Assembly: GCA_033549365.1 (NCBI GenBank) | Contig: JAWSUF010000004.1 | Span: forward strand, 172,058-236,057 | DNA: 64,000 bases | Source: Acidobacteriota bacterium | Lineage (GTDB): Bacteria > Acidobacteriota > Aminicenantia > Aminicenantales > Saccharicenantaceae | Direction of reading: 5' to 3' | In this document: positions 10,243-59,213 of the stretch, piece by piece | Numbering within the stretch: the first letter of the stretch is position 1 | Layout of the letters: the number at the start of each line of letters is the position of its first letter | The notes under the pieces: model-generated | The model's database searches: none | Told to the model about the DNA's origin: nothing | The model's input: the letters and a program-made list of their open reading frames with translations, nothing else | Program-made: the position numbers and the translations under genes

Positions 10243-10251
10243 CGATTTCCC

Positions 10252-42002: not shown

Positions 42003-43070
42003 TCAGGTCTTGAGAGGCAGCGCGACGAAGAATTCGGCGTATCGACCGGGCTCGGATTCGGCCCAGATCCGGCCGCCGTGCTTCTCGACGATCTGGCGGC
42101 AGATGTAGAGACCGAGGCCCGATCCCTTGACGCCTTCCGTCCCCGGCTGCCGCAACCGCTCGAAGCGCTTGAAGAGCCGGTCGCGGATGTCTTCGGCCGA
42201 TATGCCGACCCCCTCGTTGTGGACCGAAAAGATCATCTCGCCGCCCTCCCGGCGCATTCGCAGCCTGACCGGCGTTCCTTCCCGGCCGTACTTGACGGCG
42301 TTGACGACCAGGTTCCGGACGACGATCTCGAGCAGGCGGGGATCTCCGTGAACGACGATGTCCTTGGTCCACTCCGTTTGGATGTCCATGGCTTTGGTGT
42401 TGTCCTTGACGCCGGGCGTATCCAGGGCCTCGTTGACGACCGCCGCGGCGAAGGGAACCTCTTCCTTGAAGGCCCCCAGCTTGTCGAGTTCCATCCGCGA
42501 CAGGTCGATGTAACTCCGGATGATGTCTTCGAGATATTCGCAGTTGCGGAGAATGGACTCCACGATTCTCTGCTGGCCGGGTTCAAGGCGGCCGAAATAA
42601 CCCCGGTGAAGCGTCGAGGCCGTCGTGTGGACGGCGGAGACGGGGCTTTTAAGCTCATGAGACACGATGGCCATGAGATCGAGCATCTTCGCCGGAGCGA
42701 TGTCCTTTTTGGACTGGACGGCGTTTCGGACGACGCTCCGGATCTCTTCGGGCGTAAAAGGCTTGGGAATGTAGTCGAAGGCGCCGTTTTTGAGCGCCTC
42801 CCGGGCCGTTTCGACGTTGGCGTATCCCGTGAAAATCACGACGATGATGTCGGGTTTTTCCTGACGGAGAGTCTTGAGGACGTCCATGCCGCCGAGTCCC
42901 GGCATCTTGAGGTCGGTGACGACGACGTCGTAGTCTTTGGCCCGGGCCATTTCGAGACCCTCCTCGCCGGAGAGCGCCGTCTCGACCTCCCATTCGTCAC
43001 CGGTGAAGATCCGCCGGCAGCTCCGGAGGACGATGTCCTCGTCATCGATGAAGAGAAGCTTGGCGCTCAT
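42003..43070 (-). CDS. Hybrid response regulator/histidine kinase (REC-HisKA-HATPase_c, with no sensor or output domain)
   Basis: Trimmed to [17 protein letters not shown]... (AGGAGG ribosome-binding site), whose ATG overlaps the HK stop as ATGA. The REC domain is DVVVTDLKMPGLGG, the H-box is MAIVSHELKSPVSAV, and the ATPase G-boxes are GSGLGLYICRQIVEKHGG. Confidence 0.8.
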   Translation of the reverse strand: MSAKLLFIDDEDIVLRSCRRIFTGDEWEVETALSGEEGLEMARAKDYDVVVTDLKMPGLGGMDVLKTLRQEKPDIIVVIFTGYANVETAREALKNGAFDYIPKPFTPEEIRSVVRNAVQSKKDIAPAKMLDLMAIVSHELKSPVSAVHTTASTLHRGYFGRLEPGQQRIVESILRNCEYLEDIIRSYIDLSRMELDKLGAFKEEVPFAAAVVNEALDTPGVKDNTKAMDIQTEWTKDIVVHGDPRLLEIVVRNLVVNAVKYGREGTPVRLRMRREGGEMIFSVHNEGVGISAEDIRDRLFKRFERLRQPGTEGVKGSGLGLYICRQIVEKHGGRIWAESEPGRYAEFFVALPLKT

Positions 43071-45037
43071 GATTCCTCCTTGGCGCTCTCCCAGGGGTTC
43101 GGATCGGGACCGGCTTCCCTGCGGGGAAGCCGGATGGTGAATTCCGTACCCTCGCCGACCTTGCTGCGAACGGAGATCGACCCGTTGTGGCGCTGGATGA
43201 CGCCGTAGGTCACGGCCAGTCCGAGCCCCGTCCCCTTGCCCTTGTCCTTGGTGGTGAAAAACGGCTCGAAGAGTTTTTTCATGTTCTCTTCGCTGATGCC
43301 GACGCCCGTATCGGCGAACTTGATGACGATCTCGTCTCCCGAGGGATCCCTGTGGGTGGTAATCATCAGGCGGCCGCCGTCGGGCATGGCATCGGCGGCG
43401 TTCACGGCCAAATTGTTGATGACCGACCGGATCTGCCCGGTGTCGACGCTGATCAGGGGCAGCGACCGGTCGTAGTCCCTGACGATGGTGATATTCTGAA
43501 AGCTGACGTTTTTTTCGATAATGCGCAGGGAGGCGTCGATCAGGGCGTTGATGTCGACGTCGATTTTTTCCGGCCGGCTGTCCCTGGCGAAATCCAGAAG
43601 GCCGCGGACGATGGTCCGGCAGCGCAGCGTCTCGTCCTGAATGACCTTGAGGTCGTCCTCGTGAGGCGTGCCTCTGAGCTCTTCGAGGAGAAGGCAGCTG
43701 TAAGTCAAGACTCCCGTCAGGGGATTGTTGATCTCGTGGGCGATCCCCGATGCCAGGCGGCCGATGGAGGCCAGCTTCTCGGACTTGAGGATCGATGTTT
43801 CCGCCAGATTCTTGAGCCAACGGTCGCGTTCCTCGATGGCCTCGGTCATCTTGTTGAAGGCCGTGCCGATGTTCCGGATGTCCTGGTCGTCTCCGGGCCG
43901 GATCTCGATTTTTGCGTAATTGCCCCGGGCGATCTCGGCCGAGGCGGTGATGATGCGTTTGACCGGGCGCGTGGCGGCGCCGATGAGATAGACGGCCACG
44001 GCCAGAGCCAGGATCGTCGTCAGGGCGATGACCTGAAGAAACGAGACGGTTGTTTCGCGGAGGATGGCGTTGAATTTATCCTCGAGAATTCCGGCGTAGA
44101 GGATTCCGATTCTCCGGTCGTGAATGTCGTAGATGGGGGTGTATCCCGAAAGATACCAGGCATCGACGACGAAGGCTTTCCCGACGAACGTCCGCCCTTC
44201 CTCGAAGACTTCCCGAAAGACCTCCTCCGAGACCTGGGTGCCGATGGCTCTCCGGCCGTCGCGGTCCTTGACGTTCGTGGCCACGCGGACGTCGCCCAGA
44301 AAAATCGTCGTCGTCCCGACTTCTTTGTCGTTGAATTCCTCGTCCCGGAAGACGAGGTTTTTGAACCGGTCGATGAACGTCTCGTTGTTGTTGAGAACGA
44401 TCGCCGCGTAGAGGATGCCGATCATCCTGCGGCCGGACATGACGGGCGCGACCAGCTTGATGACCAGGGCCCGGTCCTCGACCAGGACGTCCCGCGGCTG
44501 CGCATGGGGTGTCGGGATCACAGGGATCAGGGTTCGGGCGGCCAGCATCGGACCTTCCCGCCGGATGTCCTCGTTTTCGAGGACACCCGTTCCGAAAACC
44601 GGTTCCCGGTTTTCGAGCACCCACTTGACGTAGCTGTAATGGGCGATGCTGTCGCCGTATTCCTCGAAGTTATTGGCCCGGACAAGCACCTGGCCCCCGG
44701 CGTCGACGAGGTTGACGATGTCGAATTCGAATTCCTTCTTGATCTGTTCGAGTTTGGTGAAGAGGAATTCGCGGTCCCCCCTCGCCACCGCCTGGACGAT
44801 TTCAGAAGTCTTGGACAGATAGTTCACGATGCGGGCGCGCTTGGCGATTTCCTCCCGGTAAAGGAATTCCGTCGCGGCCAGGCTGCTTTCAACCGAATCC
44901 TGGGCCTCGCGGATGACGTTCCGATCGATGATCCGGACGCCGACGAGAATGGACAGGGCGCCCGTCAGAAGAACGATGGACAGAAGCCCGACGATCAGCT
45001 TGAGGCGGATGTCGGACCGGTTGAGAAACTTGATCAA
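43067..45037 (-). CDS. Sensor histidine kinase with a ~270-aa extracytoplasmic dCache-like domain between two transmembrane helices, plus HAMP, HisKA and HATPase_c
   Basis: 656 aa. TM1 is residues about 11-33 and TM2 about 305-327. The H-box is [16 protein letters not shown] and the ATPase motifs are [18 protein letters not shown]. Confidence 0.85.
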
Positions 45038-45444
45038 TTCAGGGCGGCCTCGATTTTTGCCAGAAGATCGTCGATATCCACCGGCTTCGTCAGAAAATCG
45101 TCGATGCCGGGAAGGAAGTTTTTGGAGTCGTCGAGCGAGAAGCGGTTGTTCGTGACCTGGTTAATGGCCGTCAGCAGAATAATCGGAATGTTACGGAATT
45201 CCCGATAGCGCGAGCTTTCCCTGTCGCTCCGGATCTGGGCGGCCGCTTCGAAGCCGGCCGTGTCGGTTTCCATCATGACGTCCAGGATGAGGAGGTCGGG
45301 TTTTTCCGCGAGAAGCGTTTTCAGGCCGGCTGAGCCGCTGAGCGCCGTCACGACCTCGTAGCCGTTCGCTTTCAGGGCCTGGCCGAGGCTTTCGACGAGG
45401 TCTTTGTCGTCGTCGATGAGAAGAATTTTCTTGGCCATGAGCAT
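45034..45444 (-). CDS. Single-domain response regulator (REC only)
   Basis: 136 aa with a CheY-like fold: KILLIDDD, the phospho-acceptor in DLLILDVMMETDTAGFEA, LLTAI, and K in TKP. The start may be the third codon (MAKKILL). It lies 15 nt downstream of the hydrogenase small-subunit gene. Confidence 0.8.
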   Translation of the reverse strand: MLMAKKILLIDDDKDLVESLGQALKANGYEVVTALSGSAGLKTLLAEKPDLLILDVMMETDTAGFEAAAQIRSDRESSRYREFRNIPIILLTAINQVTNNRFSLDDSKNFLPGIDDFLTKPVDIDDLLAKIEAALN

Positions 45445-45459: not shown

Positions 45460-45990
45460 TTAGTCCTTGAGAAGCTGGTAAATGACGTTCCGGTCCTCCC
45501 AGGCCTTGCTGCGCTCGTAGGCGTCGATGGGGAATTCGACCTGCTTGAGTTCGACGGGCGCCGCCTTCTTGTCGACCAGGCCGAGCGCCAGGGCCACGCC
45601 GTAAATGATGGCCTCAGGCCGGGGAGGGCAACCGGGGACATAGAAGTCGACGGGCACGGCCTGGGCCCCGCCGCCGGTGACATTGTACGTGTCGAACCAG
45701 CAACCGCCTCCGACCGCGCAGGAGCCGATGCCGAAGACGATTTTCGGGGCGGGGATGGCCGCATGAGCCCTGCGGACCAGGGGCAGCGTCGGACGCGTGA
45801 CCGAACCGGACAGCAGCATGACGTCGGCGTGCCGCGGCGAGCCGACGAGCCGGATCCCGAAGCGCTCGACGTCGTAGTAGGGCGTCAGGACATTCAGGAT
45901 TTCAATGTCGCAGCCGTTGCAGGCGCCGCTGTTGCAGTGATAGACCCAGAGGGATTTGGGAAAGAATTTTTTCGATAACTTGGCCAGCAT
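45460..45990 (-). CDS. Group 4 [NiFe] hydrogenase small subunit (HycG/NuoB family)
   Basis: 176 aa. The proximal-cluster Cys motifs are HCNSGACNGCD, GIGSCAVGGGCW and VPGCPPRPE. Confidence 0.85.
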   Translation of the reverse strand: MLAKLSKKFFPKSLWVYHCNSGACNGCDIEILNVLTPYYDVERFGIRLVGSPRHADVMLLSGSVTRPTLPLVRRAHAAIPAPKIVFGIGSCAVGGGCWFDTYNVTGGGAQAVPVDFYVPGCPPRPEAIIYGVALALGLVDKKAAPVELKQVEFPIDAYERSKAWEDRNVIYQLLKD

Positions 45991-45991
45991 G

Positions 45992-46537
45992 TCATTCTCC
46001 GAGCTTATGGGGACGTTGGAAGGATTCGGTCTCGCGAAGGATCCGGGGCTCGAACTGTTCCGATGTCCGGCGCAGGACGGTCCGGGCCTGGAGGCTGTCG
46101 TAGCGGAATCCCTTGAGGTCGAGCCGGTCGATGAGATTCGTGATCTCCATATCGTAACACCGGCCGCATCTCCGGCAGGTCAGCATGAAGAGTTCGAGGT
46201 TCTGGGTGATGTCCTCCCGGTCATTCGTGGCCAGCTCGAATTGTTCGGTCATGGCGATGGCGTCTTCGGGACAGACATCGGCGCAGCGCCCGCAGTACAT
46301 GCAGCGCGATCCGTCATAGAGGAGAACGCGGATGTCCTGACAGATGTCGCGGACCATGATCGTTCGGGCCGGGCAGTGGTCGGCGCAGCCGCCGCAGCCG
46401 ACACATTTCGTATGGTCCCAGGCCGGGGCACCCCGGAAGTCCTCCGGGGCGGGACGGGGTTCGAAGGGATATTTCAAGGTAACGACGCCCGGCTTGAGAA
46501 CCAGGAGGACCTGTTTGATCTTGCTCATAAGCCACAT
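45992..46537 (-). CDS. 2x[4Fe-4S] ferredoxin-like hydrogenase subunit (HycF/NuoI family)
   Basis: Two CxxCxxCxxxCP motifs are present (CVGCGGCADHCP, CMYCGRCADVCP), and the protein is about 180 aa. Confidence 0.8.
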   Translation of the reverse strand: MWLMSKIKQVLLVLKPGVVTLKYPFEPRPAPEDFRGAPAWDHTKCVGCGGCADHCPARTIMVRDICQDIRVLLYDGSRCMYCGRCADVCPEDAIAMTEQFELATNDREDITQNLELFMLTCRRCGRCYDMEITNLIDRLDLKGFRYDSLQARTVLRRTSEQFEPRILRETESFQRPHKLGE

Positions 46538-46557
46538 GATCTTCTCCTTTGCCTCGG

Positions 46558-47466
46558 CTAGAAGCCCTTGACGGCCAGACCGGCGGCGACGAGGGCGACG
46601 GCGATCAATCCGGCGTAAAATTTTACCGCCTGGTCGATGCGGAATCTGGGGTTCGTCGCGCCGATGATTGCGATCAGGACAAAGACGACGAGGATTCCCA
46701 GGAGCTGAATGAGAATGTCGGCCGGCCCGAAACCCGTCGCGGGAAGCGGCACGAAGACGCTCACGAAAAGGAAGGCGTAAAACATCTGCTTCATCATCAT
46801 GGCGTACTTGAACAGACCGTAGAAAGCCCCGCTGTACTCGATGAAGGGTCCTTCCAGAATTTCCACCTCCGCCTCGGCGATGTCGAAGGGCTGGCGGCCC
46901 ACGAAGGCCTGGAGAGCCAGGAGGTAGACGGACAGCATGAGAACGGCGGAGATCCCGTAGCCGGCGCTTCCCAGCGGGGCCATGGCGGCGCTCAGCTTGA
47001 GGCCTCCGGATTTGACCGCCCCCAGAATGAGCGTCATGGCCAGCACCGGTTCGATCATGATCATAGTCGCCATCTCCCGGCTGGCCCCGATCAGAGCGAA
47101 GGTGTTGCGGCTGGCCAGGGCGCCGAGCAGAACACAGACCCCGCCCAGGACGAGCATGTAGATGAGCGAGATAATGTCGGTGCGCTGCGTCAGGAAGTTG
47201 GCCTTGCCTCCGAGGGGGATCATGGCGGCGACGGTCAGAACGGCCGCGAAGGCGCCCAGAGGAGCCAGCGAAAAAGCCCAGTTCCGGGCTGAGTTCATGC
47301 GCTCCTTGCCGAGAAGCTTGATGAGGTCGAAATAGGGCTGCAGGAGCGGAGGGCCCTGCCGCGACTGGATTTTGGCCGTGATTTTCCGGGTCACTCCCTG
47401 AAACAGCGGCGCGAACAGGAGGAACACGGCGACATTGACGAAGACATAGACGATGTCCATGATCAT
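46558..47466 (-). CDS. Hydrogenase membrane subunit (HycD/NuoH family)
   Basis: 302 aa polytopic protein with NuoH-like conserved regions (LFAPLFQGVTRKITAKIQSRQGPP; EGPFIEYSG). Confidence 0.85.
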   Translation of the reverse strand: MIMDIVYVFVNVAVFLLFAPLFQGVTRKITAKIQSRQGPPLLQPYFDLIKLLGKERMNSARNWAFSLAPLGAFAAVLTVAAMIPLGGKANFLTQRTDIISLIYMLVLGGVCVLLGALASRNTFALIGASREMATMIMIEPVLAMTLILGAVKSGGLKLSAAMAPLGSAGYGISAVLMLSVYLLALQAFVGRQPFDIAEAEVEILEGPFIEYSGAFYGLFKYAMMMKQMFYAFLFVSVFVPLPATGFGPADILIQLLGILVVFVLIAIIGATNPRFRIDQAVKFYAGLIAVALVAAGLAVKGF

Positions 47467-49148
47467 CTCCTCCGGCTCCGCGGCCGTCTCGCGAGTTTTT
47501 CGAGGCCGCTTGGGTCCAGAATTGTCCGGGACTTCTTCTTCATGTCGATGACGACGACGCGATCGGTGCAGGAAAAACAGGGATCGATGCTGCCCAGGAT
47601 AATGGGAAAATCGGCGAACTGGTTGTTGAGCAGCATGTCGGGGACGCCCTGAAGATTGGCGTAGGTCGGCGCCCGGACCTTCCAGCGCTCGGGCCGGTTC
47701 TCCTCGCCCGTGATAACGTAGTGGACGGATTCGCCGCGGGGCGCCTCGACGGTCGACATGCCGTGCCGAAGAGGAGGGAGGATTTCGGAGAATTCGGTGA
47801 GCAGAGGGCCGTCGTTCGGCATGGTGTCCAGGGCCTGCCGGATGATCTTCACGGATTCGAAGACTTCGAGGATCCGGACGACGACCGTGCCCCAGACATC
47901 GCCGCTGTCCATGACGGGAACAGCGAATTCGACCGCGTCATAAGCCGCGTAGGGATGGTCGCGGCGGGCGTCGATGTCCACGCCGCGGGCCCGGGCGACC
48001 GGCCCGATCAGACTCCAGCGGCGGGTCTGCTCTTCCGTAAGAAACCCGACGCCCTTGGTTCTCTTGTGAATGGACGTGTCTTTCAGAACCGCCGCCTTGA
48101 CTTCGAGGACCTCCTTTTCGACGGTTTCGAGGGTTTCGCGGAGTTCTCTTCCGATCTCCGGGGTGATATCCCGGCGGACGCCGCCGATCACGATCATGCC
48201 GTAGGTTTTGCGGTTGCCGGTGATGCGCTCCGAAAGCCACATGATGCGCTCCCGGATCCGCCAGGCCTGCATGAACAGCGTGTCGAAACCGATGAGATGG
48301 CCGGCGACGCCGAGCCAGAGGAGGTGGGAATGCAGCCGCTCGATCTCCAGCAGGATGGTCCGGATGAATTCGGCCCGCCGGGAAATCTTGAGTCCGGCGG
48401 CTTCCTCGACGGCCTGGGCGTAGGCCGCGGCATGGACGGAACCGCAAATGCCGCAGATGCGTTCGGCCACAAAGGGAATTTCGTTGTAACTGACCTGCGT
48501 CTGGCAGAGTTTTTCGATGCCGCGGTGAGTCATGAATCCGCGATAGTCGCAGCCCTTGATGGTTTCGCCGTCGACGTAAACCGCAAAATGGGCCGGTTCA
48601 TGAAGACTCGCGTGAAAGGGCCCCACGGGAACGACCGTCGTTCCGGGTGGAGCTTCGTCCAGTTGGTAGGCGACGTCCTCGGCTGCGGGCGGGACCAGAT
48701 TGTGGGGCACGTCCTTGCGCAGCGGATAAATGCCCTCCGGCCAGTCGTCGGCCAGGATCAGGCGTTTCGGTTTCGGATGGCCTTTGAAAGTCATGCCGAG
48801 AAGGTCGGCGCATTCCCGCTCCGTCCAGCCCGCATTGGGGATGTCCGGGGTGATGGAGTCGAACACGGGATCGTTCGCGGGGGCCGATGTCCGGAGGGCC
48901 GCCAGGATTCCGTCCCGGTCGAAAGCGAAAGTGTGGATCAGGGGGAGCGTACCGTCGCGTTCGATGCTGTCCGCGCCGAACCCGACCATGTATCTTGCTC
49001 CAAGTCCGATGAGCCGCGCCGCGGCGGCCCGGAGGTGCTCTCTCGGGATGTCGAGATAGACGCGGTGGGGAAGAGGAATGTCGACGGTCAGTCCGGACGT
49101 GCCGAACTCCGTCTCCAGCGTTTTTTTCAAGGTGTCCGGCGTCAGCAT
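47463..49148 (-). CDS. Group 4 [NiFe] hydrogenase large subunit fused to a NuoC-like N-terminal domain (HycE-like)
   Basis: 561 aa. The N-terminal Ni-Fe ligand motif is RICGICGSVH and the C-terminal one is DPCFSCTDR. The roughly 170-aa N-terminal domain is NuoC-like, as in HycE. Confidence 0.9.
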   Translation of the reverse strand: MLTPDTLKKTLETEFGTSGLTVDIPLPHRVYLDIPREHLRAAAARLIGLGARYMVGFGADSIERDGTLPLIHTFAFDRDGILAALRTSAPANDPVFDSITPDIPNAGWTERECADLLGMTFKGHPKPKRLILADDWPEGIYPLRKDVPHNLVPPAAEDVAYQLDEAPPGTTVVPVGPFHASLHEPAHFAVYVDGETIKGCDYRGFMTHRGIEKLCQTQVSYNEIPFVAERICGICGSVHAAAYAQAVEEAAGLKISRRAEFIRTILLEIERLHSHLLWLGVAGHLIGFDTLFMQAWRIRERIMWLSERITGNRKTYGMIVIGGVRRDITPEIGRELRETLETVEKEVLEVKAAVLKDTSIHKRTKGVGFLTEEQTRRWSLIGPVARARGVDIDARRDHPYAAYDAVEFAVPVMDSGDVWGTVVVRILEVFESVKIIRQALDTMPNDGPLLTEFSEILPPLRHGMSTVEAPRGESVHYVITGEENRPERWKVRAPTYANLQGVPDMLLNNQFADFPIILGSIDPCFSCTDRVVVIDMKKKSRTILDPSGLEKLARRPRSRRR

Positions 49149-51061
49149 GATGGTTCTCCTCGATGGTCGACCGGAAGAGTTTCATGATCCTGCGGTTCGC
49201 CTCCGGTCCAGCGGAACAGCTTCTTGAAGGCTGCGAACATGCTCTTGTCCACGTAGCGATTGATGTTTTCAGGTTCCTTGTAGCCGCAGAGCCATGTCTG
49301 AGCCGGAACATCCTTGGCTCCCCCCGCACGTTTCAGGAGGAAGGCCAGAATCAGGGCACCAAGAAAGACGGCGAAGAGAATGAGAGGGCTCAGAGCGGCC
49401 GCGATTTCCCCAGGGGGCAGGGAGGGCGGATATCTCAACCGGATGCCCGAGAGAGAAAGACGGAGAATGCCGTCCCCGGCCATGACGGATAAGGAGTTTT
49501 CGGCGATGAATCCCTTGGATGCGGCGAAGACCCGGCCGAACAGGCCGTAAAAGAGAAGAGGAAACAGTCCCTGAATCACGCAGATGGCGGCGAGCAGGAT
49601 TTTGGGAATCAGCATGGCCGCCGGGACCTCCCGGACCGTCTTTTTGACCGTCCATTCCGTCCCCGAGGATGTGAAGGCCATGCCGAAGAATTTGACATAA
49701 CAGGCCAGGGTCACCGCACTCGTAAAGAGGGCGACAATCCCGAAAAACAGCAGAGCCGCGTCGCTCCGGCCGGCCAGAAGGGAACTTGAGATGATCGACC
49801 ATTTGCTGGCGAAACCGCTTGTGGGCGGCATGCCCGAGATTGAGAGGGAGGCGATCCCGGCCAGGACGGCGGTGAGAGGCATGAGCGTGATCAGACCGCC
49901 GAGCCGGTTGAGATCTTTCGTTCCCGTGGCATAAAGGAGGCTTCCGCCCGTCATGAACAGAAGGCCCTTGAACACGGCGTGATTGACGATGTGATACATC
50001 GCGCCGACCGCGACGATGACGGCCAAATATTGTGCCGCCGCGTCGGTCGAAGGAGCAAGAACAAGCACGAGGCCCGAGGCCAGGACGATGTAGCCGATCT
50101 GGCCGATGGAGCTGAAGGCCAGCAGCCTCTTGGCGTCGCTCTGTTTGACGGATTGGACGGTGCCGATGAAAAGGGTGATCGTGCCGAGGGCGGCGATGCC
50201 GATTCCCCAGGCGCGGATGTCGAAATTCTCTTCCGCCTTCGGGGCCATGAAAAGAAACGTCCGCATCAGGCCATAGACGCCCGTCTTCAGCATCACGCCG
50301 CTCAGGAGCGCGCTCACCGGAGACGGAGCCACGGAATGGGCCCCGGGAAGCCAGAGCCGGCCAAGGGGCCAAACGCCCGCTTTGATGCCGAAGCCGACAA
50401 GCAGAAAGGCGGCGAAGGCGGCCAGCGATCCCGGAGACGTCCCGCCCATTTTGGCCATGATGGCGTGAGTGTCCTCCCCGAACCGGTAGCCGTTGACGAA
50501 CCAGGCCCCGGCGACGACGAGAAGCCAGGAGATTTCCATGAGGACGAGGTAAGTCACGGCGATCTTGACGTTTTCTTTTTTTCGGTGTTCGTAGCGGATC
50601 AGGAAGAAAGAGGCCAGGGTCATGATCTGCCAGGCGATCGTGAACCCCGTGGAGAGATCGTCCACCGTCACCAGGGCGGCCATGCCCAGAATAAAGAGCG
50701 GAAAGGCGGCATAATAGCCGCCCGCCCCGTAGTCTTCGTAGTGTTCCATGTAGCGGATCGAATAGAGGGCGCTCAGGGCCGCCATGACACCGATGACGAT
50801 CAGGAAGAGTCCGGAAAAGCCGTCGATGAGGAAGGGCAGCGCCAGCGGTCCGAGACGGACGGTTTCGATACCGGCCGAGGCTCCGCCGACGGCTTTCAAC
50901 CCCGCCGTCACGATCAGGCCGCCGGAGGCGGCCGCGGCCAGGAAATTCACGATTCCGGCCAGGCGTTTGTTTTTTGCGAGAAACGGAGCGATCCCGGCCG
51001 AAACGGCCAGGATGCCGAAGGCGGCGAAGAGATAGGGCGTGAGGGTTGCATTCGGGCTCAT
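49142..51061 (-). CDS. NuoL/MnhA-type antiporter-like membrane subunit (HyfB/HycC-like)
   Basis: Trimmed to MSPNATLTPYLFAAFGILAV... (639 aa); the track ORF has a 227-aa Arg/Pro-rich spurious extension. The sequence shows proton-pumping antiporter-subunit topology and motifs. Confidence 0.8.
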   Translation of the reverse strand: MSPNATLTPYLFAAFGILAVSAGIAPFLAKNKRLAGIVNFLAAAASGGLIVTAGLKAVGGASAGIETVRLGPLALPFLIDGFSGLFLIVIGVMAALSALYSIRYMEHYEDYGAGGYYAAFPLFILGMAALVTVDDLSTGFTIAWQIMTLASFFLIRYEHRKKENVKIAVTYLVLMEISWLLVVAGAWFVNGYRFGEDTHAIMAKMGGTSPGSLAAFAAFLLVGFGIKAGVWPLGRLWLPGAHSVAPSPVSALLSGVMLKTGVYGLMRTFLFMAPKAEENFDIRAWGIGIAALGTITLFIGTVQSVKQSDAKRLLAFSSIGQIGYIVLASGLVLVLAPSTDAAAQYLAVIVAVGAMYHIVNHAVFKGLLFMTGGSLLYATGTKDLNRLGGLITLMPLTAVLAGIASLSISGMPPTSGFASKWSIISSSLLAGRSDAALLFFGIVALFTSAVTLACYVKFFGMAFTSSGTEWTVKKTVREVPAAMLIPKILLAAICVIQGLFPLLFYGLFGRVFAASKGFIAENSLSVMAGDGILRLSLSGIRLRYPPSLPPGEIAAALSPLILFAVFLGALILAFLLKRAGGAKDVPAQTWLCGYKEPENINRYVDKSMFAAFKKLFRWTGGEPQDHETLPVDHRGEPSC

Positions 51062-51900
51062 ATCTGTTCCCCCAGCGTTTTGATCTGTTTGTAGGTGTAA
51101 ACCGGGCCGTCCGTGCAGACCAGGGTTCGGCCGATGGCGCAGTGCTGGCATTTGCCGATGCCGCACTTCATGTGACGTTCGAGCGTCGAGATGATGTGCG
51201 CATCTTTCAGTCCCCGTTTCAGAAGATCCCGGATCACGGCATTGAACATGACCGGGGGGCCGCAGACAAAGGCGACGGTGTCCTTGACGGGAATGCCGGC
51301 TCTCTCGACGAGGGTGTTGACGAAGCCGACGTGCTTGGTCCAGCCGGGCTCGGGATTGTCGATGGCGATGTGAGTTTCGAATCCGTCCGTCTTCAGCCAT
51401 TTGTCGATCATATAGGTATACATCAGGTCTTTTGACGTTCGGGCGCCGTAAAGGAGAAGGATCCGGCCGAACTCGTCCCGGTGCTGCAGAACGTGGACGA
51501 TGGAGGAGCGAAGGGGGATGAGGCCGATGCCGCCGGCGACGTAGATGATGTTTTTTCCTTTGATCTCCTCGAACGGGAAGCCGTTGCCGAAGGGACCGCG
51601 GATTCCGATCTTGTCGCCGGGTTTGAGATCGTGGAGGGCGCGGGTGACCTTGCCGACGCTTCGGACCGAGAGGTGGAGGCGGTCGTTTTCGGGGCTGAAA
51701 GGCAGGGATACGGCGAACTCCCCGGCTCCGAACACGGTGCACATGATGAACTGGCCGGACCGGATGCGGAAGTTCCGGCCGGCGGCCTCGTCGACGAACC
51801 GGAAATAGAAGGTCTTGACCTCGTCGATCTCGTCCTTGATTTCATCGACGACGGCGATTTCTGGGACGGTGACGATGGCGGTTTCTGTTTTGGCATTCAT
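51058..51900 (-). CDS. FAD/NAD(P)-binding oxidoreductase subunit with a C-terminal [2Fe-2S] (sulfhydrogenase gamma HydG/AsrB/PyrK-like)
   Basis: 280 aa. It has a ferredoxin-reductase-type FAD and NAD(P) fold (RSGQFIMCTVFGAGEFAVS, IYVAGGIGLIP) and a C-terminal CGIGKCQHCAIGRTLVCTDGPV 2Fe-2S motif. Confidence 0.75.
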   Translation of the reverse strand: MNAKTETAIVTVPEIAVVDEIKDEIDEVKTFYFRFVDEAAGRNFRIRSGQFIMCTVFGAGEFAVSLPFSPENDRLHLSVRSVGKVTRALHDLKPGDKIGIRGPFGNGFPFEEIKGKNIIYVAGGIGLIPLRSSIVHVLQHRDEFGRILLLYGARTSKDLMYTYMIDKWLKTDGFETHIAIDNPEPGWTKHVGFVNTLVERAGIPVKDTVAFVCGPPVMFNAVIRDLLKRGLKDAHIISTLERHMKCGIGKCQHCAIGRTLVCTDGPVYTYKQIKTLGEQI

Positions 51901-51906
51901 GGGCGT

Positions 51907-52962
51907 TTACTCCGTGATCTCCCGCCGGATGGCCGTCACGACCGTGGGCAGGCCGATGTCGCCGGGACAGACGCGGACGCACCGCCCGCAGCCGACACAG
52001 CCGGGGCGGAGGTATTTCCGGGACTGGGAATAGGACAGCTTGCAGAAGAAACGCTTGTTGCGGCGGTCCTCGACCGGGCGGCGGGGGTTGTGATCGCCGG
52101 CCATTTTCGTATATCCCTCGAAGGAGCAGGAATCCCAGGTCCGGCAGCGGTCCGTCGTCCCGTCAGGCCCGTTGAGATCCTCGATGTTGAAACAGGAACA
52201 GGATGGACAGGTGAACGCGCAGGCGCCGCACTCGAAGCACTGTTTTCCGATGTATTCCCAGACCTCGTTTCGGATGAAGCCCGTCGTCAGACGGTTGGTC
52301 GCCCGGGAGATCCAGGCTTTGTTTTCCCGGGAAACCTCGTCGAAGAGGGCGATGGATCCGTCGACGATTTTATCTTTGAGGGCCGTCTGGGCCTCATCCG
52401 CGGCCGGAAGTTCGAGCTTCCGGACAAGAGCCTCGCCCTTTTCGCTGCCGGCTTCCACGAGATAGACATCTCCGGCTTCCGTGAGGTTGATGTCGAAGCC
52501 CTCCCGGGCCGAGGGGCCGCTGTCCGTGCAGACGCAGAAGCACTGGGGAAAGGGCCGGACACAGGTGTTGGCGACGATGAAGGTTTTGCGGCGGTGGTCC
52601 CTGAAGACGTCATCGACGAACTCCTGTCCGAGAAAGAACCGGTCGAGACAGAGAAGCCCGGTCAAATCGCAGGAACGGATGCCGACCAGGGCTTTGGGCC
52701 GGACAAGATCGGCCGGCGCGATCCGCACATCTCCGGTCGAGCGATCATAGGTATAGCCGAGGATCGATTCGCGCTGGGGGAAAAAGGGGATCTTGGCCGG
52801 GTTGTAAGGAATGGGGGCCTGGAGGGCGATGTCCCCGGGGTCGGCCGCCCTGTCGAAGAGGACGTCTTTCGAATCGGGATGAACGATCGGACCGTATAGG
52901 TCATAGTCCGCGGCCAGCGCCGCCATGAATTCGGGAACCTTTTTTTTCTCGAGGATGTTCAT
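51907..52962 (-). CDS. 4Fe-4S cluster protein, sulfhydrogenase beta/AsrA-like (HydB-like)
   Basis: Trimmed to MNILEKKKVPEF... The ferredoxin motifs are CFECGACAFTCPSCSC and CVGCGRCVRVCPGD, and the architecture resembles AsrA/HydB. Confidence 0.7.
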   Translation of the reverse strand: MNILEKKKVPEFMAALAADYDLYGPIVHPDSKDVLFDRAADPGDIALQAPIPYNPAKIPFFPQRESILGYTYDRSTGDVRIAPADLVRPKALVGIRSCDLTGLLCLDRFFLGQEFVDDVFRDHRRKTFIVANTCVRPFPQCFCVCTDSGPSAREGFDINLTEAGDVYLVEAGSEKGEALVRKLELPAADEAQTALKDKIVDGSIALFDEVSRENKAWISRATNRLTTGFIRNEVWEYIGKQCFECGACAFTCPSCSCFNIEDLNGPDGTTDRCRTWDSCSFEGYTKMAGDHNPRRPVEDRRNKRFFCKLSYSQSRKYLRPGCVGCGRCVRVCPGDIGLPTVVTAIRREITE

Positions 52963-52964
52963 GG

Positions 52965-54929
52965 TCACACCTTTTCGATCCGGATCGGAACGGCGGCGTC
53001 CTCTCCCCGGGAGGACGATCCCCATGCGGAGGGCAGAAGCCGGGCGATCGTCTCATGGAGAAAATAGGGGACGTAAGCCGCTCCCGGTTTCAGGGCTTTG
53101 GAGATTCGGGTGAACGAGGTCAGAGCGCCTTCGGCGGATGTCAGGGAGACCGGGGTTCTTTCCCGGAGCCCGAGGCGTTTGGCGTCCTCTTCGGCGATTT
53201 CAACGAACCCGTTGGGATAAAGAAGAAGGAGGGCGTTGTACTCTCGCATGGGAATCTGGGTTCTGCGCATGATGGTGTTCCGATGCCAGAAGTGATTGGC
53301 CTCACCCGTCAGAAGAAGGAAGGGATACTCCTCGCTTGTTTCCGGGACTTGAAAAGCACCGGAAATCGGGGCGAAAGCCGGAGTCCCGGCTCCGGCGCCT
53401 TGCCACTGAATCCCGAAATCTTTTTCGAGTTTCGCATAGGTGACTCCGGAATAGGCCGGGACGACTTTGGCAATCTCCCGCATCACATTCTCCGGCGACC
53501 GGAAGCCCCAGTCCTGTTTTCGCCGGGCCGCGATTTCGCTGAAGATCCGCCAGGCCGGCAGCGCGTCCGGCGGAGCCTCGGCTTTGGCCCGGCTGAGCTG
53601 GATTCTCCGTTCAGTGTTGGTGAAGGTGCCGTCTGTTTCGACATAAGAGGCTGCGGGAAGGACGACATGGGCCGATTCCAGGAACGGATTGGCGTAGGCT
53701 CCTGTATAGACGACGAAATCGAGGCTGCGGATCCGTTCGGCGAAACGGCCGGTGTCTTCATCGTGATCCATGACCACGAGGGCTTTCAGCTTTTTTTCGG
53801 GATCGGCCAGTAAGGCGTTGACTTCGAATCCGGCGGTCGTTGTCGGCGCTTTCTCCCAGACGGTTTTCAGGCGCTCCGCGGCCGCGGCATCCCCGACCGG
53901 GGCATAACCCGGCCAGAGGTCGTGAACGGCGCCCATATCGTAGCCGCCGACGATATTGCAGATGCCCGTGATGGGATTGATGCCGCAGCCTTCCCGGCCG
54001 GCATGTCCGGAGAGAAGAAACAGGTTGTGGAGCACGGCGATCGTGTCGCGGTCGAGGCCGGAAATCCCCGAAGAGAAGAAAGCCATGGCCCGCTTCGCTC
54101 CGGCCAGCCGGAGGGCGACGCCGCGAATGTCATCGGAACTCAATCCGGTCAGACGTTCGATATCGGGCATGTTCAGGCCCCGGAGCGATTCGGCGAAGGC
54201 CTCGAAACCCGAATTGCGGTTGTCGGCGAACTCCCGGGCGGCCCGGCCGTCCTCGATGAGCGTCTTGGCCATGGCAGCCAGAACGAGGGCGATTGTACCG
54301 GGTTTGTTCTGTATGTGGGTGCGGCTGAGTTCCGCAATTTGGGTCCGCCTGGCCCCGATCGTCACGAGGTCCGCGCCCTGAAGTGCGGCCAGATGAAGAT
54401 CGCTCCCGACAATCGGGTTCTGGCGTGTGATGTCCGCGCCTGCGACAAGGAGAAAGTCGGCCTTGGCGATGTCGGCCAGCGAGCCCGGCATTGCTGGGAT
54501 TCCGCAGCTTCCACCCAGAACGTCGACCGCCTCGCGGTGGCCGTCGTCCGAAAGGAGGGAGATGTTGTTCGAGCCGAGGACGGAACGGGCCAGCTTGACC
54601 AGGGAATAGATGTCCTCGTTCGAAGCGCGGGGAGACGCCCAGAAGGCCGCTTCGGATCCGGCGAAGCCGCCCAGGCGGTCGGCGACCAGATCCAGGGCTT
54701 CGGAGAGCGGGACCTTCTCGAAATGTCCGTTTCTCCGGACAAGAGGATGGAGAATGCGCTCCTTTGTCCCCAGAAGTTCATGGATATGCCAGCCTCGGAC
54801 ACACAGCCGGCCCTTGCCGACGGGATGCCCGGGGGAGGCGAAAACCCCCGTGATGGACCCGTTTTCAACTCTGAGGTTGTGTCCGCAGCCCGTGCCGCAG
54901 AAGTTGCATACGCCCGGTTTGTAGGTCAT
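52965..54929 (-). CDS. FdhF-like molybdopterin (Mo/W-bisPGD) oxidoreductase subunit with Gly in place of the Sec/Cys Mo ligand
   Basis: Trimmed to MTYKPGVCNFCGTGCGHNL... (GAGGAG ribosome-binding site). The N-terminal 4Fe-4S motif is CxxCxxxC...C. Its collinearity with E. coli FdhF (to the extent I recall that sequence correctly) includes the segment ARSVLGSNNISLLSDDGHREAV, corresponding to ARAVIGTNNVDCCARVUHGPSV. The position equivalent to Sec140 is Gly, preceded by Asp-Asp. Confidence 0.8.
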   Translation of the reverse strand: MTYKPGVCNFCGTGCGHNLRVENGSITGVFASPGHPVGKGRLCVRGWHIHELLGTKERILHPLVRRNGHFEKVPLSEALDLVADRLGGFAGSEAAFWASPRASNEDIYSLVKLARSVLGSNNISLLSDDGHREAVDVLGGSCGIPAMPGSLADIAKADFLLVAGADITRQNPIVGSDLHLAALQGADLVTIGARRTQIAELSRTHIQNKPGTIALVLAAMAKTLIEDGRAAREFADNRNSGFEAFAESLRGLNMPDIERLTGLSSDDIRGVALRLAGAKRAMAFFSSGISGLDRDTIAVLHNLFLLSGHAGREGCGINPITGICNIVGGYDMGAVHDLWPGYAPVGDAAAAERLKTVWEKAPTTTAGFEVNALLADPEKKLKALVVMDHDEDTGRFAERIRSLDFVVYTGAYANPFLESAHVVLPAASYVETDGTFTNTERRIQLSRAKAEAPPDALPAWRIFSEIAARRKQDWGFRSPENVMREIAKVVPAYSGVTYAKLEKDFGIQWQGAGAGTPAFAPISGAFQVPETSEEYPFLLLTGEANHFWHRNTIMRRTQIPMREYNALLLLYPNGFVEIAEEDAKRLGLRERTPVSLTSAEGALTSFTRISKALKPGAAYVPYFLHETIARLLPSAWGSSSRGEDAAVPIRIEKV

Positions 54930-55412
54930 GCCGCATGCTCCTCTGTGATTTCGTCCGGTGGGAAGTTTGAAACTGTTACAAATAATGGCTTTCCGGCACT
55001 CATCCCGGACGCTCATGCCGAAATCCGGAGTGTTCTCCGCCGAAAAGGGAGAACGGGATTATCGGCTTGAGAGGTATTTTAAACATAGAAAGGAGGATTT
55101 GTAAAGCAAAACCGGGTTTTTCACGCCGTTTACTCACCGTTCCGGGAGGCGCCTGCGGAACTCGCACATTTGAGCGTGAGTCTTCAGGATATCTAACACA
55201 TCAGACCGCTTATCCGATGGCCGGTTCAAGCTCAGACATCCTCGGCGCCCAAAACCAGGGTTCCCTCCCGAAACGCCTCGTAAAGGCCATCATGATCTAT
55301 TCACGATTTGAGGCGGCTGCAGATGCAAGGCGCGGAGGGTGAAGCTGTACTCTTCAGTACTGCGAACCCTTCGCAACGAGGCAGATGTGGCCGAATCGGA
55401 TCGCCTGAAGGG

Positions 55413-55519: not shown

Positions 55520-56023
55520 TCATGAGGAGAGGGTGAGTTTGGCGAGGTGGAAGCGCACGAGGTACAGGATATTATAGAGGGCGCTGATGCCGCCCATGAA
55601 CCGCTCCTTGATCATGCCCTTCGGAATCTCCTCGACGGACGCTTTGATGCTGTCGAGTTCGGAGGCCAGTTTGGCGGCATCGCGCTCCGCTTCCCGGAGG
55701 CCGGAGCGGGCGGCGATTTCGGCGATGGCGGCGGGAATTCGGGCGATTTCCTGAAAAGCCGCACGGAGCAGATCCCGCTTTTCCGCCGGGAAACTCCGGA
55801 CCATCTTTTCAATGACACAGATTCGGACCAGAGCATATCCGATATGGACGGCGGCCATGTCTCTGTCGTGGAAGCGTTCGGGGTAACGCTTGAGATAAGC
55901 TTCGCCCAGCCGGATCATGTCCTCGGTTTCAAAGGGAAAATCGCCGTTGAATGAAACGAGCGTTTTCCGGAAGGCCTCAAGGTCCGGGTTCCGGACAAAA
56001 ACCTCGGCGGGACTTGGATTCAT
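55520..56023 (-). CDS. Hypothetical protein
   Basis: 167 aa ORF, the only long ORF here. It has a plausible ribosome-binding site context and I recognise no family. Confidence 0.4.
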   Translation of the reverse strand: MNPSPAEVFVRNPDLEAFRKTLVSFNGDFPFETEDMIRLGEAYLKRYPERFHDRDMAAVHIGYALVRICVIEKMVRSFPAEKRDLLRAAFQEIARIPAAIAEIAARSGLREAERDAAKLASELDSIKASVEEIPKGMIKERFMGGISALYNILYLVRFHLAKLTLSS

Positions 56024-56041: not shown

Positions 56042-56419
56042 TCAGGATTTCGGGAGCGCCTTGGCCAGGACCGAGAGAAGGACGTCGAAGTTGACGGGCT
56101 TCTGAAAAACGCCGTTGAATCCGAGATCGGCCGGATTGATGTTTCGGGCCGTGGCATCTCCGATCGTGCTCAGGAGGTAGACCGGGACATCCGGACGCTC
56201 GTCCTTGAGGACCTTGGCCACCTTGGCTCCGGCATCCACGTCCTCCATCATCATGTCGCAGAGGACAATGTCCGGCTTCATGACCCGGAATTTTTCCAGA
56301 CCTTCCTTGCCGCTGATTGCGGTTTCCGTCGTGTAGCCGTTTCCGTCCAGAATGGCCTTTACGGATTCATTGATGGCGGGGTCGTCGTCGATGACGAGAA
56401 CTTTCCTTTTTTCAGTCAT
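56042..56419 (-). CDS. Single-domain response regulator (REC only), paralogue of the 45034-45444 gene
   Basis: 125 aa: KVLVIDDDPAI, phospho-acceptor DIVLCDMMMEDVDAGAKVA, LLSTI, QKP. It shares the unusual D-x-MME-x-D-AG segment with the other REC protein. Confidence 0.8.
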   Translation of the reverse strand: MTEKRKVLVIDDDPAINESVKAILDGNGYTTETAISGKEGLEKFRVMKPDIVLCDMMMEDVDAGAKVAKVLKDERPDVPVYLLSTIGDATARNINPADLGFNGVFQKPVNFDVLLSVLAKALPKS

Positions 56420-57847: not shown

Positions 57848-57997
57848 GGCGTCACGTCCCGCTGGAAATATCAGAAACGCCATCATACAGAAAAAATTCG
57901 TTTCTGACAAAAGAATTCGAACTTGGCGGGCACTTTACATGTCCCGTCCGAACGGCTAAAATACCGTCAACGCAAATGATTCATGCAGGAGGTATTC

Positions 57998-58465
57998 ATG
58001 AAAGGCGATAAGAAGCTCATCGAGGTTTTGAACTCTCTTCTTGCGGACGAGCTGACGGCCATCAATCAGTACATGGTCCATTCAGAAATGTGTGAAGGAT
58101 GGGGTTACGGCAAGCTTCACAAGGTCATCGAAAAACGGGCCATCGACGAGATGAAGCATGCCGAAAAGCTCATCGGCCGCATCCTATTCCTCGAAGGCAT
58201 TCCGATCGTCAGCGAACTCAAAAAGCTCCATATCGGGTCCGATATCGAGAAGATGTTCGCCAGCGACCGGGCCTCCGAGTTCGACGCCATCAAAGCTTAC
58301 AACAAGGCCATCAAGCTGGCCGGAGACGTCGGGGATTTTGCCACGCGCGGCATCCTGGAAGACATCCTCAAGGATGAGGACCAGCATGTCGACGAGATTG
58401 AAGAGGTCCAGGATCAGATCGGCCACATGACCCTTCCCATCTTCCTGACTACCCAGGTCGGTTGA
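57998..58465 (+). CDS. bfr: Bacterioferritin
   Basis: MKGDKKLIEVLNSLLADELTAINQYMVHSEMCEGWGY... (GGAGG ribosome-binding site). The haem-binding Met and the ferroxidase glutamates and histidines lie in a ferritin-like four-helix bundle, about 155 aa. Confidence 0.9.
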   Translation: MKGDKKLIEVLNSLLADELTAINQYMVHSEMCEGWGYGKLHKVIEKRAIDEMKHAEKLIGRILFLEGIPIVSELKKLHIGSDIEKMFASDRASEFDAIKAYNKAIKLAGDVGDFATRGILEDILKDEDQHVDEIEEVQDQIGHMTLPIFLTTQVG

Positions 58466-58542: not shown

Positions 58543-59190
58543 ATGATCATGAAAGATGAACATCCGGAACGGAATGCGTTGATCTGGCCCGCTCTTTTCT
58601 GGGGCGGTGCCTGGGGTCTTTTCGAGGCGACCTTCGGTCATGTCCTGCATATGGCCCGCATCCCGGGACTGCCCGCTCTCATCATGTTTCCGATCGGCGC
58701 GGCCCTCATGATGCGGGCCTGGCGTGAGACCGGCCGCCTGCAGGCGATTCTGATCTGCGGGGCGGCGGCCGCCTCCGTGAAGCTCGGCGGCCTGCTGATT
58801 CCCGCCGTCGATGTCTTTGCGGTCGTCAACCCGGCCCGGGCCATCCTCCTCCAATCCCTGGCTTTCGCCGGTATCACCGCGGTGGCCGGGAATCGTCGCT
58901 TTTCCCTGCCGTTTTCCGCTTTCGTTGCGGTGTCCCTTTCCTGGCGGTTGTTTTATGCCGGGCTGGCCCTGGCCGAGGGCCGGTGGTGGGGATTCGCCAA
59001 CATTTCCGATTCGACTCTTTCAATCCCGGTTTTTGTTCTTGCCGCAGGGATTGCGGGCGCCGTTCCGGCTTTTGCGGCATGCGAAATCCTTTCTCCGGGC
59101 AAACAGGCTTTTCGTCCGGCCGTCCGCAAAAGCCCGGCGGTCGCCCTCGCTCTGGTAGCGGCCGCGCTGGCCGCGGAATTTTTGATTTGA
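58543..59190 (+). CDS. Hypothetical polytopic membrane protein
   Basis: 215 aa, hydrophobic, and I recognise no family. It ends 23 nt before dmsA. Confidence 0.4.
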   Translation: MIMKDEHPERNALIWPALFWGGAWGLFEATFGHVLHMARIPGLPALIMFPIGAALMMRAWRETGRLQAILICGAAAASVKLGGLLIPAVDVFAVVNPARAILLQSLAFAGITAVAGNRRFSLPFSAFVAVSLSWRLFYAGLALAEGRWWGFANISDSTLSIPVFVLAAGIAGAVPAFAACEILSPGKQAFRPAVRKSPAVALALVAAALAAEFLI

Positions 59191-59213
59191 AGCGTCACAT
59201 TGATTTTGCCCCC

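Follow-up and report, generated by a model that had tools for sequence, protein, structure and literature searches.

Positions 45460-54929 of a 64-kb window (the whole stretch of Acidobacteriota DNA that was analysed) carry, on the minus strand, a gene cluster predicted to encode a membrane-bound group 4 [NiFe]-hydrogenase of the formate hydrogenlyase (FHL) type, joined to an input module whose formate dehydrogenase-like subunit, Mop, has apparently lost its molybdenum site. The stretch was analysed with an open reading frame (ORF) listing and with Pfam and NCBIfam profile searches. Eight genes were found, all on the minus strand and tightly packed, in the transcription order mop, hydB, hydG, hyfB, hycE, hycD, hycF and hycG. 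The junctions between them measure +2, +6, -4, -7, -4, +20 and +1 nt in the same order, and the boundary between the input module and the hydrogenase is spanned by junctions of 2, 6 and -4 nt. In the GenBank records of the operon (MDW7760627-634) the genes carry generic names such as 'molybdopterin-dependent oxidoreductase', 'NuoC', 'FAD/NAD(P)-binding protein' and 'NuoB'.

The first gene, mop (52965-54929), encodes an FdhF-like protein of the MopB family, 654 amino acids (aa) in length, with the domains Molybdop_Fe4S4, Molybdopterin and Molydop_binding. It is followed by hydB (51907-52962), encoding a HydB/AsrA-like iron-sulfur subunit of 351 aa (Fer4_22), and by hydG (51058-51900), encoding a HydG/AsrB/PyrK-like flavoprotein of 280 aa with the domains FAD_binding_6, NAD_binding_1 and DHODB_Fe-S_bind. 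The hydrogenase genes begin with hyfB (49142-51061), whose product of 639 aa is an antiporter-type membrane subunit like HyfB, HycC and NuoL (Proton_antipo_M/N; 367 bits with NF005086, hydrogenase 4 subunit B). The hycE gene (47463-49148) encodes a HycE-type [NiFe] large subunit of 561 aa, which is a NuoC-NuoD fusion by Pfam, and hycD (46558-47466) a HycD/NuoH-like membrane subunit of 302 aa (PF00146, 196 bits). The last two genes are hycF (45992-46537), for a HycF/NuoI-like 2x[4Fe-4S] subunit of 181 aa (118 bits with NF009053, the FHL iron-sulfur subunit), and hycG (45460-45990), for a HycG/NuoB-like small subunit of 176 aa with one [4Fe-4S] site (PF01058).

A scan of GTDB species representatives gave 192 confirmed relatives, and the best 80 of the 192, which are 43-55% identical, were used for the analysis of loci. 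The best match of HycE in the PDB is E. coli HycE (7Z0S_E; 425 bits, 41% identity). Both Ni-Fe motifs are present, RICGICGSVH being conserved in 65/67 and DPCFSCTDR in 63/63 relatives, and behind the second motif HycE carries a C-terminal extension for which a HycI-type protease would be needed. Identity to the E. coli counterparts is 50% for HycG, 34% for HycF and 32% for HycD, with a range of 28-50% over HycC-G, and the Cys motifs of HycG are conserved in 63 relatives. Judged by these sequences, the core is an FHL/Hyc-type, 4a-like group 4 [NiFe]-hydrogenase, the term '4a-like' being taken from the nearest characterised relative, E. coli HycE. The label of group 4f (Ehf/Ehr) was considered and rejected because the Ni-Fe ligands are intact here. 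Enzymes of that group lack the Ni-Fe ligands and are paired with NuoE/F-like genes (PMC6349859), and the operon contains no NuoE or NuoF gene. In the HyfB-like subunit, the residues that correspond to NuoL K229, H334, H338, K342 and K399 are present, and ion pumping by this subunit is plausible.

When the E. coli proteins and the HycI of a relative were used as tblastn queries, no homologue of hycI, hycH, hycB or hypA-F was detected in the 64-kb window. The only match of E. coli HycB, the 4x[4Fe-4S] connector of FHL, was a DmsB-like gene at 61625-62077, which belongs to another operon; the window thus offers no HycB homologue to this operon, and no alternative input module. A sequence-only reading made earlier had described an FHL-like group 4 core and eight co-directional genes of the same identities, with 7- and 4-nt overlaps, intact Ni-Fe motifs in HycE and no hyp or hycI genes in the window, and all of this agrees with the ORF coordinates, the profile matches, the measured junctions and the tblastn results.

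The molybdenum site of Mop

Mop is cytoplasmic and has no N-terminal extension, its sequence beginning at the motif of the FS0 [4Fe-4S] cluster (residue 8), the cysteines of which, C8, C11, C15 and C43, are all present. The protein scores 386 bits against TIGR01591 and 119 bits against TIGR01973, under the respective cut-offs of 666 and 470 bits. An AlphaFold2 (AF2) model made from an alignment of 23 sequences had a predicted template modelling score (pTM) of 0.84, and its best fold match in Foldseek was E. coli FdhH (1FDI/1AA6, TM 0.85), with mycobacterial NuoG at TM 0.67-0.68. According to this model, the four-domain fold of formate dehydrogenase (FDH) is retained in Mop.

The earlier reading had placed a Gly where E. 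coli FdhF has its selenocysteine (Sec140) and other FDHs have Cys. This was confirmed by several alignments. In pairwise HMMER alignments the Sec/Cys of an F420-dependent FDH (9T1S), of the FdhF of the hydrogen-dependent CO2 reductase (7QV7) and of Methanospirillum FdhA (7BKB) falls on Gly130 of the sequence SDDGH, and a MAFFT alignment with the genuine E. coli FdhF, NapA and NuoG and 120 homologues likewise gives Gly130 at the ligand position. Read-through at a Sec codon is ruled out, since the mop ORF has no internal stop codon, in-frame UGA included, and carries a Gly codon at this place. In terms of FdhF numbering, the replacements in Mop are K44 by R45, Sec140 by G130, R333 by T321 and Q335 by I323, and His141 is kept.

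The same residues were followed through a Mop family of 121 sequences, with positions numbered by E. coli FdhF. The four FS0 cysteines are retained in the family. The position of Lys44 is Arg in 121/121, as it also is in E. coli NuoG. At the Sec140 position 111 sequences have Gly, nine have Trp and one has Phe; the His141 position is occupied by His (106), Tyr (11) or Gln (3). Arg333 is replaced by Thr (89) or Ala (22), with Thr, Ala, Pro and Val together making up 119/121, and Gln335 by Ile, Val or Leu. The motif of the ligand region is S-[DE]-x-G-H, in which the first Asp of SDDGH is kept as Asp or Glu and the second is variable. The closest outgroup is a sister family (P0129), 33-36% identical, from metagenome-assembled genomes (MAGs) of Armatimonadota, Omnitrophica, Verrucomicrobia and Methylomirabilis; in its sequences Lys44 is replaced by Arg (120/120), the ligand residue is Tyr, His or Phe, and Thr or Ala stands in place of Arg333.

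The loss extends beyond the catalytic residues. A reference set was formed of 101 positions with a conservation of 85% or more among 56 genuine FDHs having Lys44, Cys140 and Arg333, these FDHs being drawn from the nearest 150 cluster representatives of an exhaustive profile search. The Mop family keeps 58 of the 101 positions, NapA 68 and NuoG 42. What remains of them in Mop is chiefly Gly, Pro, ligands of FS0 and residues of the protein core. Those lost include K44, R138, C140, N176, H181, D202, P203, R333 and Q335, and further along the chain V338, G402, T435, D478, R581, H655, N662 and K679. The losses are of polar positions, they occur across every cofactor-binding segment, and the substitutes are often hydrophobic, with Ile, Phe and Tyr in many cases. 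Mop is also the least conserved of the subunits compared: measured against the proteins of the window, the median identities are 47% for Mop, 64% for HydB, 68% for HycE, 72% for HydG and 81% for HycG. By these comparisons, selection is keeping all cofactor sites of the complex except the molybdenum site.

Mop most likely binds no molybdenum- or tungsten-bis(pyranopterin guanine dinucleotide) (Mo/W-bisPGD) and acts as a structural subunit. Two possibilities had been put forward in the sequence-only reading, an Asp-Asp ligand of the NarG type and a scaffold without cofactor, and the Asp pair of SDDGH was the basis of the former. Of this pair only the first Asp holds throughout the family; the second is variable, for which reason the NarG-like ligand was rejected. 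Any metal ligand at the Sec140 position is argued against by the Gly, Trp and Phe found there in the Mop family and the Tyr, His and Phe found in the sister family. Because the second Asp is not conserved, and because Lys44, Arg333, Gln335 and most of the polar positions conserved in FDHs are lost as well, the cofactor-less scaffold is favoured.

The same evidence bears on an alternative in which Mop retains Mo/W-bisPGD, either without a protein ligand, in the manner of arsenite oxidase, or through Asp/Glu128, and the cluster still encodes a hydrogenlyase for formate or another small substrate. HydB and HydG would then serve as a branch to NAD(P)+ or as the wire that replaces HycB. The conserved S-[DE]-x-G-H motif, His141 in 106/121 sequences, the full four-domain fold with its ExDGTxTNxERRxQ segment and the apparent descent of the module from a genuine FDH speak for such an enzyme. 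Moreover, the organism makes Mo-bisPGD enzymes, because a molybdoenzyme of the dimethyl sulfoxide (DMSO) reductase family is encoded in the window at 58983-61595, and a glycyl-radical enzyme with its activase lies directly upstream of the cluster in eight Aminicenantes loci. However, Lys44, Arg333 and Gln335 are replaced family-wide, together with at least 11 conserved polar positions across all cofactor-binding segments. The ligand position accepts Gly, Trp, Phe, Tyr and His, the residue at His141 changes to Tyr, Gln, Cys or Arg in many members of the Mop and sister families, and Mop is the fastest-evolving subunit. The glycyl-radical enzyme is confined to one clade and absent from the window, and neither an FdhD-like nor a FocA-like gene turned up in those flanks that were annotated or screened, in a check that was not exhaustive. 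Such a hydrogenlyase is therefore considered unlikely, although it keeps a real chance.

Loss of the Cys ligand was also seen outside the Mop family. Among the 150 nearest cluster representatives of FdhF-like proteins, about half are without it (for example P0130-P0132, P0137, P0143, P0156 and P0166). Several of these keep the motifs DPR, GxDP and VVQDxF, and many have NuoG-like N-terminal extensions. From their sequences, Cys-less 'formate dehydrogenases' seem to be common and heterogeneous.

Partners, relatives and origin of the input module

HydB reaches about 140 bits on the ShyB/HydB/AsrA models, against equivalog cut-offs of 690-750. Its sole match in the PDB is the beta subunit of sulfhydrogenase I from P. 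furiosus (9NEZ_B), and its Cys motifs are conserved in 79-80 relatives. HydG gives its best NCBIfam score with NF006220 (238 bits), its scores on the equivalog models being 188-238 bits against cut-offs of 395-650, and its best PDB match is the gamma subunit of the same sulfhydrogenase (9NEZ_C, 182 bits). The motif GGIGLIPLRS for NAD(P) binding, the motif RGPFGNGF and the C-terminal [2Fe-2S] motif CGIGKCQHC...C are essentially invariant in 75-77 relatives. The assignment of the pair to the HydB/HydG type, as originally made, is borne out by these matches and by the retained Fe-S, FAD and NAD(P) motifs. Apart from the FAD/NAD(P)H site of HydG, no substrate site can still be recognised in the predicted input module. 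HydB is presumed to be the wire from HydG to the Fe-S chain of the hydrogenase, in place of the missing HycB.

The cluster occurs in at least 80 MAGs of species level. Among the best 80 relatives, the carriers are Aminicenantes/Saccharicenans and other Acidobacteriota, Spirochaetota and a few Thermodesulfobacteriota or 'delta' proteobacteria. The loci of 61 were long enough to contain all eight genes, and in 59/61 of these mop, hydB, hydG and the group 4 genes are colinear with the window. This co-occurrence, a survey of which had been suggested with the first reading, indicates that the arrangement is not due to chance. In the two others, from MAGs labelled 'delta proteobacterium' and Thermodesulfobacteriota (L059, L064; 7000-17500), the order is hyfB-hycD-mop-hydB-hydG-(hycI)-hycE-hycF-hycG. 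A hycI gene lies between hydG and hyfB in 69/82 related loci searched, so that the window belongs to the minority without it. Two loci of the sister family (L169 and L170, 10001-20300) were examined, and both have nine genes in the order Mop-HydB-HydG-HycI-HyfB-HycEDFG, with hypA, hypB and hypC alongside. Judged by this distribution, the architecture of the cluster is old and extends over at least seven phyla. In the surroundings of the sister-family clusters, a hydrogenase of the Mrp-Mbh type was noted immediately upstream in L170 and a second HydB/HydG pair downstream in L169. Three Aminicenantes loci (L001, 14362-17043; L010; L082) differ in that the cluster ends after a partial or aberrant HyfB and the genes of the hydrogenase core are missing. 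The aberrant HyfB of L001 is a product of 893 aa with a match to Ribosomal_L28. These truncated clusters could reflect decay, rearrangement or mis-assembly.

The origin of the module was approached by a metagenome scan with an outgroup alignment. Most of the proteins recovered were ordinary FDHs; the scan was informative for seven loci in which a canonical FdhA adjoins HydB-like and HydG-like genes. The FdhA has Cys at the ligand position in four of these (L088, L089, L096, L104) and an in-frame stop exactly at the Sec position in the other three (L091, L105, L106). It keeps Lys44, CARL[C/U]H, the HP motif, NPLRGQNNVQG and VVQDIF. The HydB-like proteins of these loci are 27-35% and the HydG-like proteins 37-45% identical to those of the window. 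The seven loci resemble the window in having the same three protein types encoded by adjacent genes, and differ from it in their canonical FdhA and in having no hydrogenase genes within 8 kb; the L088 trio (6617-10463), for example, has unrelated genes on both flanks. The soluble FdhA-HydB-HydG trio looks, from its sequences, like an uncharacterised type of formate dehydrogenase, presumably linked to NAD(P)+. In a crude neighbour-joining tree without support values, the Cys-less, hydrogenase-linked clade sits beside the FdhA of the soluble loci. On comparison of these proteins, the module of the window looks like a degenerate descendant of such a soluble three-subunit FDH. In the simplest history, this FDH would have become attached to an FHL-type core, and its molybdenum site would have decayed later.

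The existence of such loci without a hydrogenase could also mean that Mop, HydB and HydG are a separate soluble enzyme, for example a sulfur/polysulfide reductase or another NAD(P)H-dependent reductase resembling the sulfhydrogenase beta-gamma or AsrAB modules, that is merely co-transcribed with the hydrogenase, and homologues of HydB and HydG do serve several enzymes (AsrABC, group 3b hydrogenases). A separate enzyme such as a sulfite reductase had been named from the beginning as the possibility that would detach the pair from the hydrogenase. Against it, there is no catalytic partner for the trio in the operon, since neither an AsrC-like gene nor genes for group 3 large or small subunits were found by ORF listing and Pfam. 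The degenerate MopB site would leave the trio without an acceptor site. A hydrogenase independent of the trio would lack a donor module. The gene order is kept over at least seven phyla, with hycI inserted within it in 69/82 loci, and in some genomes the genes are interleaved with those of the hydrogenase, which argues against a separate sulfite reductase in particular. An independent enzyme is accordingly regarded as very improbable.

Electron input and the neighbouring genes

An NAD(P)H path is proposed because the molybdenum site is gone and the FAD/NAD(P)H site of HydG is the only one left. We infer an NAD(P)H-linked function from the intact NAD_binding_1 and FAD_binding_6 domains, together with the lack of any other substrate site. 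The preferred reading, at about even odds in our judgement, is that the operon as a whole encodes a single NAD(P)H:H+ oxidoreductase that works reversibly, may be coupled to ions and is built on an FHL-type core, Mop being a NuoG-like scaffold. In this enzyme, Mop, HydB and HydG would form the input module and replace the HycB and FdhF of E. coli. HycE and HycG would be the catalytic pair, HycF an Fe-S subunit, and HycD with the HyfB-like subunit the membrane arm. Electrons would pass from NAD(P)H to the FAD and then the [2Fe-2S] cluster of HydG, on to the [4Fe-4S] clusters of HydB, and through HycF and HycG to the [NiFe] site of HycE, where H2 would be formed. Mop would serve as a scaffold, its FS0 cluster possibly lying off the pathway like N7 in NuoG.

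The potentials of the two couples (E0' of -320 vs -414 mV) place the reaction close to equilibrium, and the H+/H2 couple is calculated to rise to about -296 mV at about 10 Pa H2. Because the couple is near equilibrium, the enzyme is probably reversible and ion-coupled. At high H2, an ion gradient acting through HycD and the HyfB-like subunit would drive H2 evolution; at low H2, or in the direction of H2 uptake, ions would instead be pumped. The single complex, the absence of the cofactor from Mop, NAD(P)H as the substrate, the ion coupling and the direction of the reaction are what we infer from the genes and their predicted products.

Alternatively, ferredoxin could be the main donor, entering at HycF as in Ech- and Mbh-like enzymes, with Mop-HydB-HydG as an accessory that adds NAD(P)H, either in a confurcating or bifurcating unit (ferredoxin and NAD(P)H giving H2) or in a redox-balancing side branch of ferredoxin:NAD(P)+ transhydrogenation. 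In Ech and Mbh, ferredoxin is known to donate its electrons straight to the NuoI-like subunit, whereas H2 formation is only weakly driven by NAD(P)H alone. Reduced ferredoxin is presumably produced by the carriers, which are predicted fermenters, and flavoproteins of the PyrK/AsrB type occur in bifurcating enzymes such as NfnA. On the other hand, the core is of the Hyc type and not of the Ech or Mbh type, and in FHL the surface of HycF is covered by HycB. That mop-hydB-hydG are strictly conserved together with the hyc genes and interleaved with them suggests an obligatory input and not an accessory, and no bifurcating flavin site is evident. A main role for ferredoxin is held to be distinctly unlikely.

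Several points weigh against the NAD(P)H:H+ oxidoreductase. In FHL the FS0 cluster faces HycB, and in the proposed scheme three soluble subunits would have to dock on HycF. Under standard conditions, the formation of H2 from NAD(P)H is endergonic. 'NAD(P)H' here covers both NADH and NADPH. In the Mop family His141 and the ExDGTxTNxERRxQ segment persist, and at -2 of the ligand position an acidic residue is invariant. The lost positions are presumably pterin or guanosine contacts of FdhH, an assignment based on conservation statistics and not on coordinates. Arsenite oxidase binds Mo-bisPGD with Ala at the ligand position, so that the absence of a protein ligand is not the absence of the cofactor. 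Pumping is made uncertain by the Glu of transmembrane helix 5 (NuoL E144), which is Gln in the HyfB-like subunit of the window. Finally, all carriers are MAGs, with no cultured representative among the matches.

The wider proposal is more tentative and falls somewhat short of an even call: that these clusters represent a widespread and previously unrecognised class of NAD(P)H-dependent energy-converting hydrogenases, membrane-bound and ion-coupled, in which a soluble FDH was docked and its molybdenum site decayed. If this holds, fermenters among the Aminicenantes and Spirochaetota could shed nicotinamide reducing equivalents as H2 while using or making an ion gradient; alternatively, they could make NAD(P)H from H2. 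The carriers' habitats are sediments, aquifers and digesters, in which they are abundant, and either direction would alter predictions of H2 flux from metagenomes, in which the genes are currently labelled 'formate dehydrogenase', 'NuoB/C' and 'FHL'. In annotation, formate metabolism should not be deduced from the presence of this Cys-less FdhF-like family.

On the downstream side, hycG is followed after 15 nt by a gene for a single-domain response regulator (45034-45444, minus strand; PF00072). It is kept at that position in 61 related loci, with a median identity of 66%, and is probably co-transcribed with the operon. The next gene in the window encodes a Cache/HAMP histidine kinase (43067-45037, minus strand), which suggests dedicated two-component control of the hydrogenase. 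On the upstream side, a scan for consensus sequences alone gave a promoter-like site, TTTACA-18-TAAAAT (55076-55105, minus strand), about 150 nt before the mop start and with 10/12 consensus matches. Further upstream on the same strand lie genes for a 167-aa all-alpha protein without a Pfam or NCBIfam match (55520-56023) and for another response regulator (56042-56419). By synteny, these two genes are conserved before mop in about 40 loci of the Aminicenantes type. In a single-sequence AF2 model, the 167-aa protein forms a helical bundle, for which the PDB gave no significant match; its resemblance to histidine phosphotransfer (Hpt) domains is weak and non-significant. The pair may be regulatory, and its membership in the system is uncertain. 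No riboswitch or other known RNA was found near the operon, the sole Rfam match in the window being a tRNA at 32241-32326 on the plus strand.

In L001 (5558-8838), and also in L015, L020, L023, L033, L050 and L065, a glycyl-radical enzyme (787 aa, RVAGYS) and its activase lie upstream of the genes for the response regulator, the 167-aa protein and mop. A link of the cluster to pyruvate formate-lyase was considered and rejected, these genes being adjacent in only one Aminicenantes clade and not in the window. The gene of the DMSO reductase family at 58983-61595 is on the plus strand, its product has a Tat-like signal, and it adjoins a gene for a DmsB/HydN-like 4Fe-4S protein (61460-62215, plus strand). 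A bacterioferritin-like gene was noted at 57983-58465.

Comparison with known systems

The closest characterised system is E. coli formate hydrogenlyase-1 (7Z0S/7Z0T), which shares with the cluster the NuoC-NuoD-fused large subunit with its Ni-Fe motifs and C-terminal extension, HycG, HycF and HycD, a single antiporter-like subunit, and a MopB protein of FdhF size with FS0. It differs in that the window cluster is without HycB and its Mop without Sec/Cys, Lys44 and Arg333, and in that the window adds HydB, and HydG with a FAD/NAD(P)H site. The antiporter subunit of the window is, moreover, nearer to HyfB than to HycC, and hycA, hycH and fhlA are absent. In domain architecture and cofactor motifs, the HydB/HydG pair matches AsrA/AsrB and also the beta and gamma chains of sulfhydrogenase I, the soluble NADPH-dependent enzyme of P. 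furiosus (9NEZ). In contrast to these, it scores far under the equivalog cut-offs, and its partners are a MopB protein and a group 4 enzyme of the membrane, not a group 3b hydrogenase or the sirohaem protein AsrC.

To our knowledge, no characterised group 4 [NiFe]-hydrogenase uses NAD(P)H, and F420-type relatives of group 4 hydrogenases exist. In the HydDB scheme the donors of group 4 are formate, CO or ferredoxin. Full-text literature gave only one study with a comparable module. In Saganbacteria RX5A an 'enigmatic' group 4 hydrogenase region was described with an unclassifiable FdhH-like gene having one 4Fe-4S domain (PMC6349859, Supplementary Note 5), together with asrA-, asrB- and cooF-like genes and a membrane-bound [NiFe] hydrogenase, and was called an 'oxidoreductase module' of undetermined function (Matheus Carnevali et al. 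2019, PMC6349859). Compared by description, the RX5A region is of the Mrp-Mbh type with a CooF-like protein, whereas the window cluster, which belongs to the Hyc/FHL type, has only one antiporter-like subunit and lacks CooF. Relative to the searchable literature, the Hyc-type version and its wide distribution appear to be new, as do the common loss of the catalytic triad and the soluble FdhA-HydB-HydG relatives. As judged from its sequences, the cluster joins a new input module to a hydrogenase of group 4.

The third comparison is with the C-terminal domain of NuoG/Nqo3 in complex I. Like Mop, this domain has the MopB fold, an FS0-type cluster (N7), no molybdenum ligand and Arg at the Lys44 position, and it sits in a nicotinamide-oxidising complex that is related to group 4 hydrogenases. 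However, NuoG has additional N-terminal [2Fe-2S]/[4Fe-4S] domains and a flavin mononucleotide (FMN)-carrying partner, NuoF/NuoE, while Mop is a stand-alone FdhF-like chain combined with a flavoprotein of the ferredoxin-NADP reductase (FNR)/PyrK type, and the acceptor would be H+ at the [NiFe] site and not quinone. In sequence, the Mop family is nearer to the FDHs than to NuoG. The cluster may thus be a living example of an FDH subunit decaying to a scaffold beside a flavoprotein module on a chassis of the hydrogenase/complex I type. If so, the step by which complex I, with its fossil NuoG domain beside an NADH flavoprotein, is thought to have arisen from an ancestor like a hydrogenlyase would have been repeated here independently and with other parts, and the proposed transition from FHL to complex I would become approachable by experiment.

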